Notes: generated by a model from the sequence alone, not told the origin. A stretch of 64,000 nt of DNA from Candidatus Latescibacterota bacterium (GCA_965207885.1 OZ242311.1:2048001-2112000), one strand, 5' to 3'; numbered from the stretch's first letter, positions 1 to 11,503 are shown. A program made the numbers and translations.

Positions 1-291
1 GATGTTTTGCGGGAGGCAGATGCTATTGCCATGCGAATACTCGACCGCGCGGGTCTTATGCCTGCTGTGTCTCAGATGCCGACTGTTCTGGTGCCGTTGA
101 CGACAGATGGACAAGATGAAATTGTGATTTTGCGCCCGATTACGACTCCGGATTTTATGACTGCGCGATTTGCTGAATTGCCCCACAATCTGGTGCGCGA
201 TATGGCGGATGAAATACTGAATCTGCCCGGTGTCGCTGCCGTGGGGTACGACATTACACACAAACCGCCGGGAACTGTGGAATGGGAATGA
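1..291 (+). CDS. guaA: GMP synthase (glutamine-hydrolysing), C-terminal part (5' end outside window)
   Basis: C-terminal signature YDITHKPPGTVEWE and LRPITTPDFMTARF; frame is open from base 1. Confidence 0.93.
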   Translation, partial: DVLREADAIAMRILDRAGLMPAVSQMPTVLVPLTTDGQDEIVILRPITTPDFMTARFAELPHNLVRDMADEILNLPGVAAVGYDITHKPPGTVEWE

Positions 292-914
292 AAGACAAAA
301 GCGGAGGTTCTGGCCTGGGACCTCAAGGGGAATCCAATCACGACAAGGATCAGGAAATTATTGAAGTCCGCGTGGGACAAATTTCTATGAACCTTCTTTC
401 ACTCCTTATGCTTTTTTTCGCGTTTAATATCGCCATTGCTGTTCAATTTTTATTTTTTAGGGAGATCGAATTGCGTTTTCCGGGAATTGATAGTTGGAAG
501 TTATTGGGGTCTGTTATTTTGCTTATTATTTTTCACGAAGGACTCCATGCTGTTGCCGCGCTACTGTGGGGGAGGGTCCAGTGGCGTTCAATACATTTCG
601 GAGTCAAATGGCGACAGCTCATGTTTTATTGTCATTGTGATAAACCGCTAAAAGTGAATACGTATCGAATTTTTGCTCTTTTTCCTCTCCTTGTCACCAC
701 ACCCATTGCAGGTTTTATCCTGTGGTTAGATCCATCTACCTGGTCGCTATTGTTCTTCAGTCTAACAATAGCTGTCTGTGCCGGAGATGTCTTGTTGTTT
801 GTCAAGACCCGCCAGATTGAAAATGACAAATGGATTCAAGATCACGACTCAGAACCCGGTTTCTATATCCTGCCAGAAGCTATCGCTGCATCCCCTGAAG
901 AACACCACAGATAG
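288..914 (+). CDS. DUF3267-like membrane protein, putative zincin metallopeptidase
   Basis: TM helices, HEGLH (HExxH) motif, 'ALFPLLV', 'CAGD', 'IQDH'; ATG overlaps the guaA stop (ATGA 288-291). Confidence 0.7.
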   Translation: MKDKSGGSGLGPQGESNHDKDQEIIEVRVGQISMNLLSLLMLFFAFNIAIAVQFLFFREIELRFPGIDSWKLLGSVILLIIFHEGLHAVAALLWGRVQWRSIHFGVKWRQLMFYCHCDKPLKVNTYRIFALFPLLVTTPIAGFILWLDPSTWSLLFFSLTIAVCAGDVLLFVKTRQIENDKWIQDHDSEPGFYILPEAIAASPEEHHR

Positions 915-1755: not shown

Positions 1756-3003
1756 TTGAAAAATACTACAGTTGCGTTTTACAGCCAGCACCTCATTGGC
1801 GTTGGGCACCATTTTCGCAATCGACAGATTGTCAATGAACTGGTCAAAACATGCGATGTGTTTTTCATCGATGGAGGGCGACCAATTCCCGAAGCCGATC
1901 TTGATGAACAGGTGGTACGTATTCCTCTGCTGCCGCTTCGCACGGGCGCACAGGGTATTGAGTCTGTCGATACGGAGAGTGATTTGCAGGCTGTGATGCG
2001 CGAGCGTCAGACACAGCTTTCCGAGGCGATGGAGCAGATTCGCCCCGATGTGTTTTGTGTTGAGTTTTTCCCTTTTTCTCGGTGGTCGCTCAAGAGCGAG
2101 ATCCTCAATACTATTGTCAGACTCAATGAGGTCAATCCCGGTGCGAAGGTGCTGTGTTCTCTGCGCGATATTCCAACGCGGGCAAAAAGCAATGTGTTGC
2201 AGCCGACTGTCGCGCTTGTCCAGAGACGCGATGGAGATGCGATGCGGTTTTATTCAGTGCCTTTTGGTGGGATACATCACGAGTATTTGGCTTTTAATCG
2301 GCGGTATTACGAGGAGGTCGTGCCCGTGTTGAATCAGTATTTCGATGCGGTACTGGTGCATGGCGATTCCCAACTATCCCGGTTGGAAGATCACTTTCCC
2401 TGGACTGCTGATATCGGTATTCCCGTGGTTTATACAGGGTTTGTTTCTGAGAAACTCGGTGACGCATCTCGGCCTGGTCGTGCGCCTGATCGGTATGTGC
2501 TGGTCAGTTCTGGCGGTGGGGCTGAGGGGCTTGCGCTTGTCGCGCCGTGTATTGAAGCGTGGAAACAATTGGAGCGGGACGATGCGCACGATGGACGCGA
2601 GATGGTGATTTTTGCTGGTGCGTTTATAGATGAAAAGCATTTTGACGCTTTGTGTGGGTTGTGCGGTGATGGTCCGTTTCGCATTGAACGCTTTACGTCC
2701 AATTTTTTGGCGTGGATGAAACACGCGGATTTGTCGATTAGCCGGGCGGGCTACAATACGTGTATGAATGTGCTCGAGACACAGGTCCCGTCGATTCTGG
2801 TGCCGAGTATTGCGATGGATGATCAGGTATTTCGCGCGCAGGAGTTGATGGGATTGGGCATTGCCGGGGTGGTACATCCGGATCAACTCGGTGTGGGAAA
2901 GATGACAAAAGCTATTGCCAAAATGCTCGAGAGTCCTGTGCCCGAACACGATCTATTCCTGGATGGTGCCGAGCAAACGCGAAAGTTTATAGAATCAGTC
3001 TGA
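1756..3003 (+). CDS. GT-B glycosyltransferase (COG4671-like, GT1/GT28-C type)
   Basis: YSQHLIGVGH N-terminal motif, VEFFPFSR, VLVHGD, VSSGGGAEG, ADLSISRAGYNTCMN, DQVFRAQ. Confidence 0.85.
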   Translation: MKNTTVAFYSQHLIGVGHHFRNRQIVNELVKTCDVFFIDGGRPIPEADLDEQVVRIPLLPLRTGAQGIESVDTESDLQAVMRERQTQLSEAMEQIRPDVFCVEFFPFSRWSLKSEILNTIVRLNEVNPGAKVLCSLRDIPTRAKSNVLQPTVALVQRRDGDAMRFYSVPFGGIHHEYLAFNRRYYEEVVPVLNQYFDAVLVHGDSQLSRLEDHFPWTADIGIPVVYTGFVSEKLGDASRPGRAPDRYVLVSSGGGAEGLALVAPCIEAWKQLERDDAHDGREMVIFAGAFIDEKHFDALCGLCGDGPFRIERFTSNFLAWMKHADLSISRAGYNTCMNVLETQVPSILVPSIAMDDQVFRAQELMGLGIAGVVHPDQLGVGKMTKAIAKMLESPVPEHDLFLDGAEQTRKFIESV

Positions 3004-3015
3004 ATGAGGTGAAAG

Positions 3016-4419
3016 ATGAAAATTTATGTGTCACATCCATATCACGACCGCGAGAAAGTGATAGCGTCGAATAGCGGGGCGTCCCTTTCGGGTTTTAACC
3101 ATGTGCAGGCGTTATCGAAGTATTGCGAGGTGTATATGCCAGCGTCTGAAGCAGTGGATTATGGTCCGAATGTGCACGGTATTCGACCTGAGTTTGAGAC
3201 GATTGATGCGTCTCGCCAGTGGTTTGCGCGGCAGGATTTTGATGGCGTGCTGATGTTTGAACCCAAAGTAGATGACTTGGCATTTTTTCGCCATGTGTGT
3301 CCCGCACCCATTGTGATTCGGCTGTCGTGTTCTTTTGGGCACAATCGGGATTTTGTCGATAAGGTGCTGAATTGTTATTCACTGCTGCGGCCTTATGATG
3401 CCCTGTCACCCAAGTCGGCGTATGTCGCTGATGAGGTGGGCAAGCTGGTGTTTGACAGATCGTATTTGCACGCGATTACCAATGGGGTAGATGCCGAGGT
3501 GTTTGTGCCGATGGATAAGTTGCAAGCGCGCAAAGAGGTCGCGGATAAGACGGGTGATCAACGTTTTTTAGAGATGCCTGTCGTGGGTTTTTGCGGGCGG
3601 TTTGAGCCGGGCAAGGGTGCGTATCCGTTTTTGCGGATGGCCGATCTGAATCCCAATGTGCTGTTTGCGGTGATTGGCAAGCAGTTCGCACCCGTGACAC
3701 ATGCGCCCAATGTGATCTTTCTGGGCGCGCAACCCTATACGGATATGCCGCTGTATTACAATATGCTGGATGTATTGTGCGCGCTGTCGGTGTATTCGTA
3801 TGAGTCGTGTCCCTCCACTGTGATAGAGGGCATGGCGTGTGGTCTTCCGGTTGTGGCGACAAATTTTGCGGGTGCGCCAGAGTTGTTGGGCAGTTGTGGG
3901 CGGTTGATCGAGATTGAGCGATTTGAAGACGAGCCATTGAATGTGACGGGGTATATCGCTCCTGAAGTGATTTCAGATGCTGTGCGCGATTTTTTGGATA
4001 GCAAGACGGAGCGTGTAGAAATGGGTGAGTCTGCTCGCAAACGCGCACTAGAATTTTCCTGGGATCATACGGCACAGCAGCACATGGCACTGTTTGAAAG
4101 TCTGCGGACCAAACGCGATGCACCTGCCTGCCCGATACCAATAACCGTGAGTTTTACACAGGGGTGTGATATGTCCGGTGTGCCGAAAAGTGTGTCCAAA
4201 GGATTTAACTATTTGGGAAGCGCGCAAGGTCCGTTGCCGCGCATTTCGTTTTTTGGGCAAGATATGTCCCTTATTGAAGGCCTGGGCCTTCACTTGATGC
4301 AACATTTACACCCAAACGAAGTCGAAGCTGCTCTGATAGGCTTATGCGAGACGCGCGATAGAGCTTATAAGACGCTTCGCAAAATCCGACACTTCAGCGA
4401 TATGCTCACGGCTCCCTGA
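3016..4419 (+). CDS. GT4 family glycosyltransferase with about 100-aa C-terminal extension
   Basis: ITNGVD, GRFEPGKG, ESCPSTVIEGMACGLPVVAT (EX7E), FSWDHTAQQH. Confidence 0.85.
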   Translation: MKIYVSHPYHDREKVIASNSGASLSGFNHVQALSKYCEVYMPASEAVDYGPNVHGIRPEFETIDASRQWFARQDFDGVLMFEPKVDDLAFFRHVCPAPIVIRLSCSFGHNRDFVDKVLNCYSLLRPYDALSPKSAYVADEVGKLVFDRSYLHAITNGVDAEVFVPMDKLQARKEVADKTGDQRFLEMPVVGFCGRFEPGKGAYPFLRMADLNPNVLFAVIGKQFAPVTHAPNVIFLGAQPYTDMPLYYNMLDVLCALSVYSYESCPSTVIEGMACGLPVVATNFAGAPELLGSCGRLIEIERFEDEPLNVTGYIAPEVISDAVRDFLDSKTERVEMGESARKRALEFSWDHTAQQHMALFESLRTKRDAPACPIPITVSFTQGCDMSGVPKSVSKGFNYLGSAQGPLPRISFFGQDMSLIEGLGLHLMQHLHPNEVEAALIGLCETRDRAYKTLRKIRHFSDMLTAP

Positions 4420-4472
4420 TTGGCATAGGGATACGGCTTGTGTTGAAGTGGTAAAGAAAGGAGGTGAGAGAA

Positions 4473-4691
4473 ATGACGGAGCGCATTACATCAATGCCAG
4501 CACAAGTTTCTGTGACCTGTGTTCAACTCCCCGGTCAAGAAAGCGAACTGGCACATGGTGAGATGGCGAATACATCAGGAGGATGCATTTTGCCAGGAGA
4601 AGATTTGTTTGAGCACGACCCATTAGAGCCTCTTGAAGATATTATTGATGATATCTGTGATACGGTGAGTGAATGGTGGGCTTCCTGGTAG
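4473..4691 (+). CDS. putative RiPP/secreted peptide precursor A (double-glycine leader, 35-aa acidic core)
   Basis: Strong RBS AAGGAGGT; leader ends ELAHGEMANTSGG; adjacent to a C39-peptidase ABC exporter. Confidence 0.75.
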   Translation: MTERITSMPAQVSVTCVQLPGQESELAHGEMANTSGGCILPGEDLFEHDPLEPLEDIIDDICDTVSEWWASW

Positions 4692-4784
4692 CACCCCCAC
4701 AAGACGCTATTCCTGTTATTCAGATACTGGACGAAAACCATCTTTTTTTGCTGAATCTTACAATTCATTTACCCGGAGGATGTT

Positions 4785-5165
4785 ATGTATAATCGCGTGA
4801 CTTCAGATTCAAATTCAGACGCTGTTTTTGCCTCTTGCACGATACTGCCTATCCATCAAACAACACTAAATGTTGAAGAAATGGAGGGCATTGATGGCCT
4901 GGGAAGTGTGACAGATGCTATTGATGCAGCGGTAGATTATGTTTCTGATGTTGTTGATTCAGTAGGAGATTGTGTTTCTGATTTTGTTGATTCGTTATAT
5001 TTTTACCCCCAGGATGCTGAGCCCATATACCTGCCTGATCCAACTGTTATCCCACCATCACCACGTGATACGACGACTATCACTAATTATATATATTCCT
5101 GCGATAAGACGATCGCGGACTTAGCTTCTGGTGCGACTTGTCCGTGTATGCCGCCGCCGTGGTAA
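4785..5165 (+). CDS. putative RiPP/secreted peptide precursor B (GG-like leader, 11-mer repeats, Pro/Cys-rich tail)
   Basis: RBS GGAGG; leader LNVEEMEGIDG aligns without gaps to the precursor A leader. Confidence 0.7.
   Translation: MYNRVTSDSNSDAVFASCTILPIHQTTLNVEEMEGIDGLGSVTDAIDAAVDYVSDVVDSVGDCVSDFVDSLYFYPQDAEPIYLPDPTVIPPSPRDTTTITNYIYSCDKTIADLASGATCPCMPPPW
4908..5006 (+). repeat. three 33-bp (11-aa) tandem repeats within precursor B
   Basis: VTDAIDAAVDY/VSDVVDSVGDC/VSDFVDSLYFY; DNA 4934-4960 vs 4967-4993 differ at 2 of 27 nt. Confidence 0.8.
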
Positions 5166-5182
5166 GTCCGATGTGCATCAAC

Positions 5183-5226
5183 CCGTCATTCCCGCGCATG
5201 CTCCACGGCGTGTGCAGGAGTGACGG
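5183..5226 (+). other. REP-like stem-loop between the precursor genes and the transporter
   Basis: CCGTCATTCCCGCGCATGC...GCGTGTGCAGGAGTGACGG, 19-bp arms with G-U pairs and one mismatch, no U tail. Confidence 0.65.
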
Positions 5227-5344
5227 TGTTATATGAGGCAGGACTTACGTCACTCAGTACTGGAGAGTAGATAGCTTGCCTGGAGCATTTTAGAAATCAG
5301 CATTGTAGTTGAGTTATAGACATGTTACAGGACGGTTGGAGAAA

Positions 5345-8300
5345 ATGAATCTTTCGCACTTTTTCACCAAAAACTCGGTGCGGTCACAATCTGTTCACTT
5401 TCCCTTTGGAGGTGTTGTTTTTCAACAGGGTCAGGCGGGTGAGGCGTTTTACATTGTGCAGTCTGGGCGGTTGCGGGTGATTAAGCAGGATGAGAATGGA
5501 AATTCGACAACTGTGGGATATTTGTATGCGGGCGATCATTTTGGCGAAGGGGCATTGTTGACCAGAGAGGGACATCGGGCAACGGTGCGAGCGGTTGAGG
5601 ATGCGGAGGTGTTGCAGGTGCCGAAGGATGAATTTTTTAAGGCTGTAAGAAAAAATTCTGATGTAAGGGCGTATCTTGAGGAGCAGGTCGCCAGTATTGC
5701 GTATCGGGATTTTACGCGTTTTTTGAAAGGGGATGTTCCGAGTCAGGCAATGCGGGTGTTGTTTGCGCGGCTGAAGCGCGAGGCGGTTGAGGAGGGTGTG
5801 ACCGTTGTTGAGCGAGGTCAGTTGGGTCAGCGATTTTATTTGATCGGTAGCGGTCAGTTGGAGGCTGTGTCAGAAGACGGGGATACGGTGATTTTGAGTG
5901 CAGGTGATTATTTTGGCGATGATAGAGATGATAAAACGGTCATTCGCAGTCGGTGTCATAGCGTGCTCTTTTGTATAGATAAAAGCAATTTTAATAAGTT
6001 AAAAGCTATGATACCGGAATTTGATGAGGCGTTGGAGAAAGGTCGCATATCGCGTGGAGATCAGGGGGCGAATGGGGCATTGTTTCGAAATGCGCGACAA
6101 GTGCCCGAACCACCTGTTGACCGGTCTGATGAAAAACTGGCATCCAATACAGCATCCAATGTAGTCAATATCAGAATAGACGGTGCAAAACCATACGTTC
6201 CCACATGGTTTCGCTTTCCATTTTTGAAGCAACACGATCAATCGGATTGTGGCGCGGCGTGTTTGGGCATGATTTGTAAGTATTACAAGATGCCGATTGG
6301 GTTGAACAGGCTGCGCGATATGTCCAATGTGTCGCGGTATGGCACGTCGATGGCGGCTTTGGCTGAGGCTGCGGAAACCATAGGTTTTGTCACGCGTGGG
6401 GTGCGCACGGGGTATGAGGCTCTGATGCGAACAGAACTGCCAGCTATTCTGCACTGGGAGGGCAATCACTTTGTGGTCTTGTATCAGATTGATAAAAAGG
6501 AGGTGAAAATAGCAGACCCCGGTGTGGGTATTCGCAAGCTGTCGCGGGCAGAGTTTGAGAAGGGCTGGACAAACAGGGCACTGTTGTTGGAATACACGGA
6601 TCAGGTGGCAGAGAATGAACCGTCTCAGTCTTCTTTTAAGCGGTTTTTTCCACTGGTCAGGCCCTATACAGGCATATTGATTGAGGTGTTGCTGGCGTCT
6701 CTGGTGCTCAGTTTGTTCGGTCTGGCGTCGCCCATTTTTATGCAGACGATTGTCGATCAGGTCTTAGTGCATCACGATAAGGATTTGTTGAATTTGATGC
6801 TGGTAGGGATGGTGGTCGTCGCGTTGTTCCAGATGGGTACATCGACGTTGCGCGTCTATTTAATCGGGTATGTGAGTGCGCGGTTGAGCATTGCGATGTT
6901 GTCGCGTTTTTATCGGCATTTACTATCGCTGTCCATGCAGTTTTTTGCTCTGAGGCGCACGGGCGATTTGACCACGCGATTTCGAGAGAATACAACGATT
7001 CGGCGGTTGTTGACAGGTACGACGGTTTCTGCGGTTCTGGATTTTATCATGCTCTTTGTCTATCTGGGCTTGATGTTTTATTACAACGCTGAACTGACGT
7101 TGGTCATGCTGATTTTTGTGCCGATCTCTGTAGGGCTTACGCTGATTTACACACCCATTTTGAAGTCTTTCAGCCAGCGCGCTTTTCTGGCGCGTGCCGA
7201 ACAATCATCTGTTTTAATCGATTCGCTGCAGGGCATTGATGCGGTCAAAGCCGCGGCAGTTGAGCGCGCGACGCGGTGGCATTGGGAAGGCAAGTTCACG
7301 AAGGAAATTCAGATTGGCTTTCAACGGTTAAAAATGCAGATGTTGTTTGGGGGGATAGGAAGTGTGATCAATTTGTTGAGCAGTACGGTAATTTTATGGT
7401 ATGGCGCCTCATTGGTGATTGCGGGTAACCTGTCGGTTGGACAGTTGATGGCGTTTAATGCGCTGATTGGCAATGTGATGGGACCGATTATGGGGTTAAT
7501 TGGGATATGGCCGCAGGTGCAAGAAGCGCGTATTGCTCTGGATCGGCTGAATGATGTGTATGATACGCAGATGGAAGATGCGCGGCAACAGGGGCAGGGT
7601 TTGATCTTAAAGCATTTGGTAGGACGGGTGGTTTTTGAGGGGGTATTTTTTAGATATGGTGTTGGTTCTGACGAACCTTATGTGTTGAATAATATAGACC
7701 TGACGCTTGAGCCGGGTCAAAAAGTTGCAGTTGTGGGACGCAGTGGTGCGGGCAAAACTACGTTGGTAAAGTTAGTGCCCCGTTTGTTTGATCCGTCAGA
7801 AGGGCGTGTGACGCTTGATGGTATGGATGTGCGAGATCTGGATCCTCATTGGTTGCGTCGGCAGGTGGGTATGGTGATGCAGGAGCCGTTTTTGTTTTCT
7901 GGCACGATTGCAGAAAATATCGCCATTGGTCAGACAGACGCGGACATGGACCGCATTTTGGAAGTGGCAAAGCTATCGTGTGTACACGATTTCGTAAGCG
8001 ATATGCCTTTGGGCTATGAGACAAAGGTCGGTGAGCAGGGCGTGGGGCTATCAGGCGGACAACGACAACGGATTGCAATTGCACGGGCACTGTATTGTGA
8101 TCCGAAAATTTTGATTTTTGATGAGGCGACCAATGCCTTAGATACGGATTCAGAACAGGCGATTCAGGCGAATTTAGATCTGTTTTTGGATGATCGCACG
8201 GCGTTGATTATCGCGCATCGGTTGAGTACAGTGCGCGATGCGGATGCGATTGTGGTCTTAGATAAGGGGCATATTGTGGAGATGGGCACACACGATGAGT

Positions 8301-8359
8301 TGATGGTGCAACAGGGTTTGTACTATCACATGTGTAGTCAACAGTTGCAAGTAGTATGA
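5345..8359 (+). CDS. peptidase-containing ABC exporter (2x cNMP-binding + C39 peptidase + TMD + NBD)
   Basis: FGEGALLTREGHRATVRA (cNMP); QHDQSDCGAACL, HWEGNHFVV, IADP (C39 triad); GRSGAGKT, LSGGQRQR, IFDEAT, IAHRL. Confidence 0.93.
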   Translation: MNLSHFFTKNSVRSQSVHFPFGGVVFQQGQAGEAFYIVQSGRLRVIKQDENGNSTTVGYLYAGDHFGEGALLTREGHRATVRAVEDAEVLQVPKDEFFKAVRKNSDVRAYLEEQVASIAYRDFTRFLKGDVPSQAMRVLFARLKREAVEEGVTVVERGQLGQRFYLIGSGQLEAVSEDGDTVILSAGDYFGDDRDDKTVIRSRCHSVLFCIDKSNFNKLKAMIPEFDEALEKGRISRGDQGANGALFRNARQVPEPPVDRSDEKLASNTASNVVNIRIDGAKPYVPTWFRFPFLKQHDQSDCGAACLGMICKYYKMPIGLNRLRDMSNVSRYGTSMAALAEAAETIGFVTRGVRTGYEALMRTELPAILHWEGNHFVVLYQIDKKEVKIADPGVGIRKLSRAEFEKGWTNRALLLEYTDQVAENEPSQSSFKRFFPLVRPYTGILIEVLLASLVLSLFGLASPIFMQTIVDQVLVHHDKDLLNLMLVGMVVVALFQMGTSTLRVYLIGYVSARLSIAMLSRFYRHLLSLSMQFFALRRTGDLTTRFRENTTIRRLLTGTTVSAVLDFIMLFVYLGLMFYYNAELTLVMLIFVPISVGLTLIYTPILKSFSQRAFLARAEQSSVLIDSLQGIDAVKAAAVERATRWHWEGKFTKEIQIGFQRLKMQMLFGGIGSVINLLSSTVILWYGASLVIAGNLSVGQLMAFNALIGNVMGPIMGLIGIWPQVQEARIALDRLNDVYDTQMEDARQQGQGLILKHLVGRVVFEGVFFRYGVGSDEPYVLNNIDLTLEPGQKVAVVGRSGAGKTTLVKLVPRLFDPSEGRVTLDGMDVRDLDPHWLRRQVGMVMQEPFLFSGTIAENIAIGQTDADMDRILEVAKLSCVHDFVSDMPLGYETKVGEQGVGLSGGQRQRIAIARALYCDPKILIFDEATNALDTDSEQAIQANLDLFLDDRTALIIAHRLSTVRDADAIVVLDKGHIVEMGTHDELMVQQGLYYHMCSQQLQVV

Positions 8360-8457: not shown

Positions 8458-9840
8458 ATGGCAGAACCGCTTTTGGAGACATCGACCGAGACAATGTCTC
8501 CAAAAATTATCCAGGAGCAAGATGACGCGGCAGAAGAGGTGCATGCATTTATGGGGTCTTTGCGGCCCTTTTGGGGACGCGCATTGCTCTATATTGTCTT
8601 GCTGTTTGTAGGTATTGCCATTATCTGGGCGTGGTGGAGTAAGGTAGATGTGGTAGCATCAGCCCCTTTTCGGTTGGTGCCTTTGGGACAGGTGAAGACG
8701 ATGCAGGCGCAGCGAGGTGGTGAGATTGAGTTGATTGGTGTTAAGGAAGGAGATCATGTCGAGAAAGGGGAGGTATTGTTCAAGCTCAAATCGTGGGAGA
8801 CCTGGGGAGATTTGCGGGAATGGGAACAGGCAAAGATGGCTTTTCAAAAGGCAGAGTACGATTTCAAGACGGTGTTGCCTCAAAGGGCGAGGTTGAATCG
8901 AGAGACGATAGGGGCATTGGAACAACGTCTTTCCGTTTTGCAGCGGTTTATGGAGGCACATCAGAATGCGCTGGAAGATTATCAAAGTGATATGGGCGGT
9001 GTTGAGGGATCGAAAACCAAAACATCTGATGCGGGGTTGCAAGCGCAGATCGGGTTTCGTCAGGCTGAAATTGACCTTATGAAAGGGGAGTTTTTACAGC
9101 AAAAGACGCTGTTTGAGCGCGAATTGATCAGCCGGGCAGATATGAATCGCGCGCGCGTGCAGTATTTGAGTGCTCTATCCGCGCTTCCATCGCGCATGTC
9201 GGAGATATACAAGAATGAAATGGCTGTGGCTGATCTCAAGCGTCAAATCACAGAAGCGCGTATTGCACACGAGCGCGAGGCATCGCAGATGCGACATGCT
9301 TATGAGACTGCACACTTGCGATTGGAACAGGCGCGCAAACGCATTGATCGCACCCTCGAAGCCGAGTCGGATTTGATTCTGGCTTCTGTATCGGGCATTG
9401 TAACACAGGTGATGGTGAATGCAGTTGGACAGGTGATCAGTAAGGGGCAACCTTTGGTTGCACTGGCACCGGCCTCAGCGCCGATGGTTGCAGAAGTGAT
9501 GGTGTTGAATAAAGATGTGGGCTTGCTCAAACCCGGTCAGTTGGTCAAGCTGAAATACGATGCGTATGCCTTTCAGGATTTTGGTATCAAACGCGGATGG
9601 CTTACATCCATCTCGCCCGATGCGGTGATTGATGAACGTATTGGACCGATATTTAAGTGTGTTGTCGAACTGGAAGAAAATACGATGCGCGTGAAAGGAT
9701 ATGACAAGCCTCTGATGTTTGGTATGAAGGGCACGGCTGAGATGATGACAGATCGGCAATCGGTTTTGCTGATGTTGCTTTCTCCCTTGCGACAACTTTA
9801 CGAGTCGGCGAAGTACGATGTGCAGGAGGGTGCGTTGTGA
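8458..9840 (+). CDS. HlyD-family type I secretion membrane fusion protein
   Basis: N-terminal TM, VKEGDHVEKGEVLF, long coiled coil, NKDVGLLKPGQLVKLKYDAY, ISPDA, GMKGTAE. Confidence 0.92.
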   Translation: MAEPLLETSTETMSPKIIQEQDDAAEEVHAFMGSLRPFWGRALLYIVLLFVGIAIIWAWWSKVDVVASAPFRLVPLGQVKTMQAQRGGEIELIGVKEGDHVEKGEVLFKLKSWETWGDLREWEQAKMAFQKAEYDFKTVLPQRARLNRETIGALEQRLSVLQRFMEAHQNALEDYQSDMGGVEGSKTKTSDAGLQAQIGFRQAEIDLMKGEFLQQKTLFERELISRADMNRARVQYLSALSALPSRMSEIYKNEMAVADLKRQITEARIAHEREASQMRHAYETAHLRLEQARKRIDRTLEAESDLILASVSGIVTQVMVNAVGQVISKGQPLVALAPASAPMVAEVMVLNKDVGLLKPGQLVKLKYDAYAFQDFGIKRGWLTSISPDAVIDERIGPIFKCVVELEENTMRVKGYDKPLMFGMKGTAEMMTDRQSVLLMLLSPLRQLYESAKYDVQEGAL

Positions 9841-10610
9841 TGTCAGAAGTACTAATTCAGGTCAATGGTGCCGAGGTGTTATTAAGCGATATCGTACGGC
9901 AATTAGGTGTTGCTGATAATCTGCGTTTTTTTAATGAATTTGCGCGCAGGGAATTGATACGGCAACTCGCCCGGCGCGAGGGTGTTTGTGCAGCGCGTGA
10001 AGATATTCAGCGCAAGGTAGATGAATGGCGGTATCAACATCGCCTGGAACGGGTGGAAAATACAGAGGCCTATCTCGCAAAGCGAGGTATTACGCTTCAG
10101 GATGTGGCAGAAGATGCCGAGGTGAGGCAACTGGAGTATTTGCTGTCTGAGAAGATTGCCAAAGGACAGATCGAATCCTATTTCGCTCAACGCACACTGG
10201 CTTTTGATGAGGCGGAGCTTTGCTGGATTTTTCACACGGATAAGGGTGTGATTGACGAGGTTGATTTGCAGATTCGAGACGATGGAGCAGATTTTTACGC
10301 GATGGCGCGTCGGTTTTCTCAAGATGCACGCACGCGATCAGGTAGTGGCTTTTTAGGTCGTGTTCGGCGCAAGCAGTTGCCAAAGGGGATTGCTGCACGC
10401 GTGTTTGCTGCTTCACCGGGTGAAATTTTGGGACCGGAAAAAGTATCGAAAGGCTTTGCGCTGTACCTGGTGCAAGAACGCTACCCGGCAACACTAAATG
10501 AGCGGACAAAAAAGGAGATCCGCAAGCACCTGTTTAATCAGTGGTTGCAACGCGAAGTGCAGCGGGCAGATATACGGTATCCGATTTGGCAGACGGAAAT
10601 TAAAAAATAG
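9837..10610 (+). CDS. parvulin/PpiC (SurA-like) rotamase-domain protein, cytoplasmic
   Basis: DFYAMARRFSQD..GSGFLG..LP..VF..PGEILGP..GF; no signal peptide; GTGA overlap with hlyD. Confidence 0.8.
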   Translation: MMSEVLIQVNGAEVLLSDIVRQLGVADNLRFFNEFARRELIRQLARREGVCAAREDIQRKVDEWRYQHRLERVENTEAYLAKRGITLQDVAEDAEVRQLEYLLSEKIAKGQIESYFAQRTLAFDEAELCWIFHTDKGVIDEVDLQIRDDGADFYAMARRFSQDARTRSGSGFLGRVRRKQLPKGIAARVFAASPGEILGPEKVSKGFALYLVQERYPATLNERTKKEIRKHLFNQWLQREVQRADIRYPIWQTEIKK

Positions 10611-10651: not shown

Positions 10652-11503
10652 CTAAGGCATCACAGCTTCTTTCCCCTGGTATTCTCGGATCCAGCCTTTT
10701 AATGGCACATCTTCTTCTGTTGGGGATGTGTAGCCGTGAATGCCAGAAGGGGAATGCCGGCACATTTGCTTTCGGATTGGGCTTAGTTCATCCCAGAAAT
10801 TTTCCACGTTGCATTCGCCGCGTGCCTGCAGCCAGCGATAAGCGTATCCGTAGAAGAGCACCTTGCGGGGTTGTGTCCAGTAATTTGCACTCGCCGAATG
10901 CCACAACCGGCGATCAAAAATAACGGCAGTACCCCGGGGTACAAGGATGGGTACGGCGCCTTTTACCATCTGATTGCGATTTCCGTTCGGCCAAGTCATC
11001 TTATTTTTTACCTGGCTTCCCGGTATGACGTGAAAATTGCCGCGTCCCGGTTCGCTTGTATCCGAGAGAAAGTAGGCCACTTTGACCGATAAGCGCGGCC
11101 TTGGGTTTGTCTCCATCTCTTGATTCACGCGCCCGGTATCTTGATGCCAGCCGATTCCCAAACCGCGTTTGCTATCTGGTGGTTCGGGAGGTGTCACGTT
11201 CAGGTGTGCCAGATAGATTTGAATATTCCACCCTAAGATTCCCCAAACTTTTGGGAATGTGGTGTAGTGATCTATCAGGTCAATAAATGCACGGTCCCGC
11301 CCCAGAAAGTCGCGTTCGTGAACACGCTTATGTGGTTCGATTTTTTGCTTTTCGCGTTCTACGGCATTGACGCGGTCAACCGCTCTGGTCAATTGTCTTC
11401 TTTTTGCGTCGCTCAGCGCGTTTTCAATGATCAGATAACCCCGATCCTCAAATTCGAGCCGTTCGTCTTCGGTCAGGCAATGATTTAGCCAGCGTCTGTT
11501 CAT
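10652..11503 (-). CDS. phytanoyl-CoA dioxygenase (PhyH) family 2OG-Fe(II) oxygenase
   Basis: GYLIIENAL, WHQD, VIPGSQ, GTAVIFDRRLWH, RKVLFYGY. Confidence 0.88.
   Translation of the reverse strand: MNRRWLNHCLTEDERLEFEDRGYLIIENALSDAKRRQLTRAVDRVNAVEREKQKIEPHKRVHERDFLGRDRAFIDLIDHYTTFPKVWGILGWNIQIYLAHLNVTPPEPPDSKRGLGIGWHQDTGRVNQEMETNPRPRLSVKVAYFLSDTSEPGRGNFHVIPGSQVKNKMTWPNGNRNQMVKGAVPILVPRGTAVIFDRRLWHSASANYWTQPRKVLFYGYAYRWLQARGECNVENFWDELSPIRKQMCRHSPSGIHGYTSPTEEDVPLKGWIREYQGKEAVMP

Follow-up and report, generated by a model that had tools for sequence, protein, structure and literature searches.

Positions 4473-4901 of the DNA analysed here, a window of 64,000 nt on one strand from Candidatus Latescibacterota bacterium (GCA_965207885.1 OZ242311.1:2048001-2112000), run from the start codon of a first small gene, precursor A, through the final leader codon of a second, precursor B. 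We read this span, with a probability of roughly 0.6, as the leader shared by two precursors of a locus that matures and exports several peptides in an uncultured member of the Latescibacterota, and for this locus we propose export, docking and glycosylation. The leader probably steers both the exporter and the glycosyltransferases (GTs) encoded beside it. The two precursor genes and their parts, with leader residues numbered backwards from the predicted cut, are:

4473-4691, + strand: precursor A, 72 residues (translation)
4473-4583, + strand: leader of precursor A, 37 amino acids, with Gly-Gly at its end
4482-4493, + strand: N-terminal box R-I-T-S of leader A; the 155 unique leaders include 151 with R(-34) and 154 with S or T at -31
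4518-4532, + strand: C-V-Q-L-P box (C-22 to P-18) of leader A; among the 155 unique leaders, 144 have the C, 154 the L and 131 the P
4548-4583, + strand: putative double-glycine recognition segment of A, L(-12)...E(-8) M(-7)...T(-4)...G(-2) G(-1), after the published pattern (PMC10885120)
4584-4691, + strand: core of A and stop codon, 35 amino acids, acidic, starting C-I-L-P-G and ending S-E-W-W-A-S-W
4785-5165, + strand: precursor B, 126 residues (translation)
4785-4901, + strand: leader of precursor B, 39 amino acids, with Gly-Leu at its end
4836-4850, + strand: C-T-I-L-P box of leader B; C18, L21 and P22 invariant in 29 family-B sequences
4902-5165, + strand: core of B and stop codon, 87 amino acids, with an acidic repeat region, a Pro-rich middle and a Cys-containing tail

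In translation, the leader of A reads MTERITSMPAQVSVTCVQLPGQESELAHGEMANTSGG and is followed by a core beginning CILPG, and the leader of B reads MYNRVTSDSNSDAVFASCTILPIHQTTLNVEEMEGIDGL and is followed by a core beginning GSVTD. By eye, a GGAGG-type ribosome-binding site lies 6-9 bases 5' of each gene; promoter, terminator and repeat scans of positions 4300-5400 found nothing exceeding shuffles. On inspection by eye we rejected F-A-S-C as a lipobox, there being no preceding hydrophobic signal segment and the corresponding S-V-T-C of A being unfit. Besides A and B, the 64-kb window holds no further leader-encoding open reading frames (ORFs).

The initial annotation had proposed that the two precursors share a gap-free leader motif, and residues 12-37 of A indeed align without gaps to residues 14-39 of B (8 of 26 identities, BLOSUM62 sum 25), while both translations open with M-x-x-R-[IV]-T-S, as it had also stated. 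As a bare pair the similarity is weak and barely significant: BLASTP of A against B aligned nothing at E ≤ 100, and among 5000 shuffles of leader B, 71 scored at least as high as the real pair's top ungapped match (29) and 20 reached nine identities along a single diagonal, for a motif that was itself picked after inspection of the sequences. The shared leader is solid because the relatives, and not the bare pair, carry the signal. Database relatives number 76 for A and 28 for B, and profiles built from 75 family-A and 29 family-B sequences align to each other in hhalign with a probability of 91% and an E-value of 1e-6 over 67 columns. Inside each family, the positions common to A and B (C, L, P, L, E, M, G) vary little or not at all.

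The same motif extends to precursors of other types. A MAFFT alignment of 20 leaders from at least four precursor types contains no gaps from the P-x-Q region to G(-2), with R4, L19, L26 and G36 invariant and P20 and E30 present in at least 90%. A leader-only profile made from these 20 leaders (37 positions) identified 49 proteins at E ≤ 1e-3 among 1,835,955,588 representatives of clusters at 50% identity. Forty-one of the 49 are proteins of 54-147 amino acids with the leader at or near the N-terminus and dissimilar cores; the other eight (479-1230 amino acids), each with 5-11 partial stretches, were set aside as presumed repeat-protein false positives. Conservation among the 41 representatives is highest at L-19 (41), followed by L-12 (39), G-2 (38), R-34 (37), C-22 and M-7 (36 each), P-18 (34) and E-8 (29). 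The leader family thus delineated is 37-44 residues long, is attached to many unrelated cores and is conserved in three elements: R-[IVM]-x-[ST] close to the N-terminus, [FS]-[VA]-x-C-x2-L-P at -25 to -18, and L(-12)-x3-E-M-x4-G(-2). Judged by these conservation counts, the C-x2-LP box, which the initial annotation had singled out as an extra element outside the double-glycine signature, is a hallmark of an uncurated leader family at least as much as the canonical positions are, and not a product of chance, because it is kept better than E(-8) in the 41 representatives. Neither leader matches a curated Pfam-A or NCBIfam family at E ≤ 10, and the whole precursors match no Pfam family at E ≤ 0.01 and no NCBIfam family at E ≤ 10.

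One could suppose that the similarity is a leftover of a recent precursor duplication and that the upstream box is functionless. A and B do appear as paralogs over the leader and part of the core (the 67 hhalign columns), and the marginal score of the bare pair fits such an origin as well. Against this, the leaders are conserved above the cores, with a per-column identity of 0.81 versus 0.63 in family A and 0.86 versus 0.53 in family B, and the pN/pS ratio (non-synonymous to synonymous differences) of the leaders among orthologs is close to 0.4 (∼0.40 for A over 105 pairs, ∼0.39 for B over 91 pairs). Two natural chimeras, P0089 (90 amino acids) and P0115 (88 amino acids), moreover reuse the N-terminal part of a B-type leader (through L-N-V-E-E) with an A-type leader end and an A-type core, from which the N-terminal part of the leader seems interchangeable among precursor types. 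Because the leader-only profile finds the box in 41 clusters with unrelated cores, the duplication account looks largely refuted on sequence grounds, and we regard it as very improbable.

The cores attached to these leaders vary widely. In related loci, type C precursors have cores beginning CFPVP or CYPTP, type D precursors have a hydrophobic core, and B-type leaders precede a Gly-rich WDWG core, a CLLGEV core or a CHYEP core. The C-I-L-P-G at the start of core A (4584-4598) echoes the C-V-Q-L-P-G of its own leader (4518-4535), which could reflect a modification site or a pseudo-substrate relation. Of 75 family-A sequences, 71 have Cys and 4 have Ser at position +1 of the core.

This echo lends some colour to the idea that the leader Cys is chemical rather than a docking residue, i.e. 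that it is S-glycosylated, is bonded to the core or to an enzyme through a disulfide or thioester, or serves as a decoy of the C-I-L-P-G of the core. C(-22) is present in 36 of the 41 representatives, the replacement of Cys by Ser at +1 of A is in keeping with a nucleophile for glycosylation, and S-linked sugars on Cys occur in glycocins (PMC8068269, PMC12457901). Most type-C leaders, on the other hand, have Val in the Cys column and still retain the L-P, so that the Cys cannot be essential for all precursors. We also know of no RiPP (a peptide made by ribosomes and modified after translation) in which the leader is the modified part, and a chemical role for this Cys appears improbable, if less so than the duplication account.

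The genes that flank the precursors in the window are:

1756-3003, + strand: GT28-like (MurG/macrolide-GT-like, GT-B) glycosyltransferase, 415 amino acids; Pfam Glyco_tran_28_C 2.3e-12
3016-4419, + strand: GT4-family glycosyltransferase, 467 amino acids, with an extra C-terminal domain at ∼377-467; Pfam Glycos_transf_1 2e-18
5309-8359, + strand: exporter, a peptidase-containing ATP-binding cassette (ABC) transporter (PCAT) of 1016 amino acids, with two cNMP-binding (cyclic nucleotide-binding) domains, a C39 peptidase and an ABC transporter (Pfam)
8458-9840, + strand: HlyD-family periplasmic adaptor; TIGR01843 7.2e-64, over the cut-off
9837-10610, + strand: PpiC/SurA-like protein with a parvulin-like domain; Pfam Rotamase 3.1e-12 and parvulin matches in the PDB

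The order on the + strand is therefore GT28-like, GT4, A, B, PCAT, HlyD and PpiC/SurA-like, with the PCAT starting 144 bases downstream of B. The exporter matches cNMP_binding (2.4e-31, two stretches), Peptidase_C39 (2.8e-39), ABC_membrane and ABC_tran in Pfam, and its C39 part (∼residues 295-445) aligns to PCAT1 (4ry2) at 9e-22, the motifs of the catalytic Cys (DCGAAC), His (NHFVV) and Asp (ADP) being intact and in register. Of its two cNMP domains (5309-6180), the first keeps by eye an F-G-E...R-A-T-V-R-A motif that we take to resemble a phosphate-binding cassette, and the second looks degenerate. The cNMP-type domain of HetC is reported to be required and to bind ppGpp (guanosine tetraphosphate) (PMC10986499), and by analogy the cNMP domains of the PCAT could take part in leader reading. 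The GT28-like protein has further weak NCBIfam matches to murG and MGT, far under their cut-offs.

In published substrates of C39 domains and PCATs, positions -4, -7 and -12 are hydrophobic and the cut follows GG, GA or GS (PMC10885120). The initial annotation had recognized the double-glycine signature in both leaders; the L(-12), E(-8), M(-7) and G(-2) residues do fit the C39 pattern and a PCAT adjoins, with B carrying I, M and L at -4, -7 and -12 as that rule describes, but the fit is incomplete in A, where these residues are T, M and L. Gly at -2 (G36 of A, G38 of B) is kept in 151 of 155 unique leaders and in 38 of the 41 representatives, the remaining three being unaligned at that position. 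Position -1 is more variable: it is Gly in all 75 family-A sequences, and L in 26, Q in one, V in one and a gap in one of the 29 members of family B (all 29 of which have G(-2)); the 38 representatives with G(-2) carry G there 24 times, L 9 times, A and E twice each and K once. A thus obeys the Gly/Ala/Ser rule at -1 and B does not.

It had also been suggested that the Gly-Leu of B might be cleaved non-canonically, including at LG/GS, or that the peptide might be exported uncleaved. The register that puts Leu at -1 is supported by a B-type relative in one of the related loci described below (L012), which has Gly-Gly in exactly the gap-free register of the Gly-Leu of B. An alternative hhalign register, which treats Leu39 of B as an insertion (G-l-G), was rejected, since W or C follows the Leu in B-type relatives and the Gly-Gly of L012 lies in the gap-free register. 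A cut at LG/GS is unlikely for the reason that those relatives carry W or C, not G, after the Leu. A lone PCAT gene stands beside both a Gly-Gly and a Gly-Leu precursor in the window and in 11 related loci, and cleavage by a C39 domain after Gly-Lys has been shown experimentally for OrgT (PMC12457901). Taken together, the conserved Leu, the gap-free register, the lone PCAT serving both precursor types and the Gly-Lys precedent make a predicted cut after Gly-Leu the simplest reading, though B may conceivably be exported uncleaved.

To place the window among related loci, we scanned with the family-A profile, taking one genome per species, which gave 14 loci (numbered L001 to L014), every one in a metagenome-assembled genome record of the Latescibacterota. 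The initial annotation had pointed to searches for such leaders near C39 transporters, and homologous leaders were found in loci with PCATs: 13 of the 14 have one. The complete set (GT28-like, GT4, precursors, PCAT, HlyD and PpiC-like) is present in 11 of the 14; two others are truncated by contig ends, with contents that agree with the gene set, and L013 has four precursors and no enzymes within 20 kb. The GT28-like ortholog lies directly upstream of the GT4 gene in 12 of the 14, the number of precursors per locus is 2-4, and in one genome the entire module occurs as three paralogs (L002, L008 and L011). Just upstream of the four precursor genes of L013 is a 36-codon remnant of the start of a GT28-like gene (L013:9537-9647), which suggests that L013 is a rearranged or orphan precursor array. 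A GT4 homolog, P0163, lies on a contig of the same size as that of L013 (4,717,263 bases). In L008, two overlapping ORFs between the precursors and the PCAT (L008:12056-13245) look by eye like an IS3-type transposase pair.

Several other genes recur in or near these loci. A PhyH-family (2-oxoglutarate/Fe) dioxygenase, convergent in the window (10652-11503, - strand), is found in the fetched flank of 6 of the 14 loci (L001, L002, L005, L006, L007 and L014) and may be a tailoring hydroxylase or unrelated. A DUF3267 'putative zincin peptidase' membrane protein, which could be a second-step protease or an immunity protein, recurs by the cluster (window 282-914, + strand; L002:6209-6841; L006:4490-5122 and 5591-6442; L008:11200-11808). 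Searches of the ORF at 955-1473 against Pfam and NCBIfam at E ≤ 10 gave nothing useful.

What may read the upstream boxes? The initial annotation had offered the C-x2-LP motif as a possible docking site for the GTs or the parvulin-like protein, and for both there are pointers. The GT4 enzyme belongs to a discrete family of ∼45 full-length homologs at 46-96% identity, after which identity drops to generic GT4s at ≤34%. GT4 homologs and precursor matches occur on contigs of equal size, which we take to be the same contig; these include a remote pair, P0197 (a 48% identical GT4) and P0133 (leader-bearing), both on a contig of 252,730 bases. The AlphaFold2 model of the GT4 protein (mean predicted local distance difference test, pLDDT, 87.9) has a GT-B fold, with MshA, GlgM and BshA as the best PDB matches, and its C-terminal domain (∼377-467) is modelled as three strands followed by three helices, an order that recalls the RiPP recognition element (RRE), which we note as an idea only. 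A predicted complex of GT4 with precursor A scored 0.47 (runs 0.41, 0.47 and 0.52) against 0.00 for the best of three controls, and lends weak support to an interaction. In the calibration, the mark was attained by 116 of 157 solved complexes and by 2 of 215 mismatched pairs, with 18 of the 157 solved complexes and both mismatches lying at 0.60 or below; contact agreement between runs is at least 33%, and the pLDDT of the partner is 36 or higher.

The PpiC-like protein matches TIGR04500 at 85.3 bits against a cut-off of 180, over model positions 88-336 of 340 only. Its HMMER alignment with HP_0175 places a W at the first parvulin His and lacks the second, and both of these His residues are catalytic in parvulins. 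Because both are unmatched, the protein is probably non-catalytic, with a binding role instead, and because no signal peptide was seen by eye it is probably cytoplasmic. The parvulin Par10 of Escherichia coli favours Leu ahead of Pro (PMC4922055), so the conserved Leu-Pro of the leader would, by analogy, suit a parvulin fold, which we offer as a lead. MirC, a PpiC-like protein of the TIGR04500 family, is described as a required non-enzymatic partner of a RiPP synthetase (PMC13097080).

We propose that the segment from L(-12) to G(-2) would form an amphipathic helix and cut site for the C39 domain, and that the exporter would cut after -1 and export the core, a single exporter accepting both the Gly-Gly of A and the Gly-Leu of B. 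The two upstream boxes would then be a second recognition element that retains the precursor at the maturation proteins until export. Its likeliest reader is the GT4 enzyme with its extra C-terminal domain, with the GT28-like enzyme or the PpiC-like chaperone as alternatives. The GTs would then glycosylate residues of the core, for which the Cys or Ser at +1 of A is a candidate site.

A number of results weigh against this scheme. The loci come from related genomes, so the conserved synteny does not amount to 14 independent observations. The C-terminal domain of GT4 has no Pfam match at E ≤ 10 and drew nothing useful from NCBIfam at the same threshold, and its resemblance to an RRE is one of element order solely; modelled by itself, the domain reached a pLDDT of 62.5, no structure in a fold search came in at E ≤ 0.001, and nothing usable was obtained from the Atlas. 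The GT4 complex with A is weak, being built on alignments that we made ourselves and reported with no interface. The PpiC-like protein is without the N-terminal (RRE-like) part of TIGR04500, and searches of its own N-terminal part against Pfam and NCBIfam at E ≤ 10 gave nothing useful. In the type-C leaders from the loci the Cys column holds Val in four of five, and the fifth has C-x3-LP. Finally, the Thr at -4 of A breaks the published hydrophobic rule (PMC10885120).

The most serious competitor supposes that the exporter alone, through its C39, cNMP-type or HlyD components, reads the whole leader, that the peptides are unmodified and bacteriocin-like or signalling, and that the GTs act elsewhere, e.g. 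on envelope glycans. The PCAT, HlyD and leader together form the best-understood link in the locus, and L013 has four precursors with no GTs nearby. The PCAT also has extra N-terminal domains, like the domain of HetC that is required and binds ppGpp (PMC10986499). In addition, four loci encode CPBP/Abi-like membrane proteins at a place between precursors and PCAT (L008:13747-14610, L009:12016-12933, L011:11562-12449 and L013:12330-13172), an assignment made by eye and by phmmer among the loci and not by Pfam, and they occur only in loci with hydrophobic Gly/Ala-rich cores. These cores with their neighbours resemble class II bacteriocins, which are unmodified, with immunity proteins; following the usual logic of a bacteriocin paired with an immunity gene, the CPBP/Abi-like proteins may be immunity proteins.

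Set against an exporter-only role are several features of the GT genes. The GT28-like and GT4 genes are directly 5' of the precursors in 12 of the 13 loci with context and were co-duplicated with them in the three modules of one genome, and GT4 is a discrete family that accompanies precursors on the same contigs, the remote pair included. In four loci a further GT4-like domain (∼430 amino acids) is fused in frame ahead of the GT28-like enzyme (L008:5978-8530, L009:5969-8509, L010:5760-8381 and L011:5846-8443); these fusion ORFs of 846-873 amino acids occur only in L008-L011, all of which have additional types of precursor (C, D, or other cores behind a B-type leader). The predicted complex of GT4 and precursor A, weak as it is, points the same way, as does the first cNMP domain, which resembles by eye a normal nucleotide binder. 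We consider an exporter-only role for the leader rather unlikely.

A bolder version of the reading in which the leader serves both the exporter and the GTs is only slightly easier to credit, and we advance it tentatively. It would make the locus a new class of ribosomal peptide with GT-B glycosylation, carried out by a GT4 with a peptide-binding domain together with the GT28-like enzyme and guided by R-I-T-S and C-x2-L-P; a non-catalytic parvulin-like partner would hold the Leu-Pro, and a nucleotide-gated PCAT would release the peptide, needing only Gly at -2 and accepting Leu, Thr, Ala, Glu or Lys at -1.

By comparison with described systems, the locus resembles a double-glycine leader and PCAT system serving several cores, which is a known kind. 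Double-glycine leaders (ComC/ComA, LahA/LahT, class II bacteriocins, microcins) are, like those of A and B, short, N-terminal and marked by L(-12), E(-8) and G(-2) together with hydrophobicity at -7 (PMC10885120), and in those systems, as here, the leader gene lies beside a C39-ABC exporter and HlyD, and one leader serves several cores. The leaders of A and B differ in their ∼25 extra conserved upstream residues (R-[IV]-T-S and C-x2-L-P), kept above E(-8), in the Thr at -4 of A, in the variable -1 and in having no curated model. Prochlorosin and Lah-type loci likewise combine a conserved leader with hypervariable cores, but the leader here is not Nif11 or NHLP and the enzymes are GTs, not lanthipeptide synthetases.

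Glycocins (sublancin, glycocin F, thermoglycocin/orniglycocin) provide a second parallel, with PCAT-removed leaders (predicted here) beside GTs and, in OrgT, a precedent for a non-Gly residue at -1 (PMC12457901). The GTs of the window match only Glyco_tran_28_C and Glycos_transf_1, and there is no SunS/GccA-type GT. The SunS/GccA enzymes of glycocins belong to GT2, whereas those here are GT-B enzymes (GT4 and GT28/GT1-like), and the cores here are acidic and Pro-rich in place of the two-helix disulfide hairpin of glycocins. RiPP clusters with GTs are on record (PMC8068269), as are fusions of RREs to PF00535 GTs (PMC12710340); neither of these matches the arrangement in the window.

The rosaritide (mir) graspetide cluster also unites a PpiC/SurA-like protein with a precursor and a PCAT, and its MirC is a required partner of the modifying enzyme and not an isomerase in effect (PMC13097080). 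Unlike that cluster, the present locus has no ATP-grasp enzyme, and its PpiC-like protein falls well under the TIGR04500 cut-off (85 bits against 180) and is without the N-terminal domain that MirC needs. HetC of Nostoc PCC 7120 has, like the PCAT of the window, a cNMP-binding domain N-terminal to a C39-ABC transporter (PMC10986499); it has no known substrate and no adjacent HlyD, whereas here likely substrates lie directly upstream and the cNMP-type domains number two. What sets the locus apart is thus the upstream part of the leader, the variable -1, GT-B rather than glycocin-type GTs, and the PpiC-like protein together with the cNMP domains of the exporter. A keyword search of the open-access literature, in which the motif itself is unsearchable, found no published description of the cluster or the leader, a weak absence.

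For a phylum without cultured members, the 37-position leader profile, which retrieves members whatever the core, is a handle for peptide-locus mining. The conserved Gly-Leu, and the Gly-Thr, Gly-Ala, Gly-Glu and Gly-Lys that occur in relatives, would, as cut sites, broaden the C39 rule on which genome-mining filters mostly rely. In A and B the locus further supplies likely substrates for a PCAT with cNMP domains, the substrate of HetC being still unknown according to PMC10986499. If the upstream box is an enzyme-docking element, it would be a portable tag that directs GT-B glycosyltransferases to peptides.

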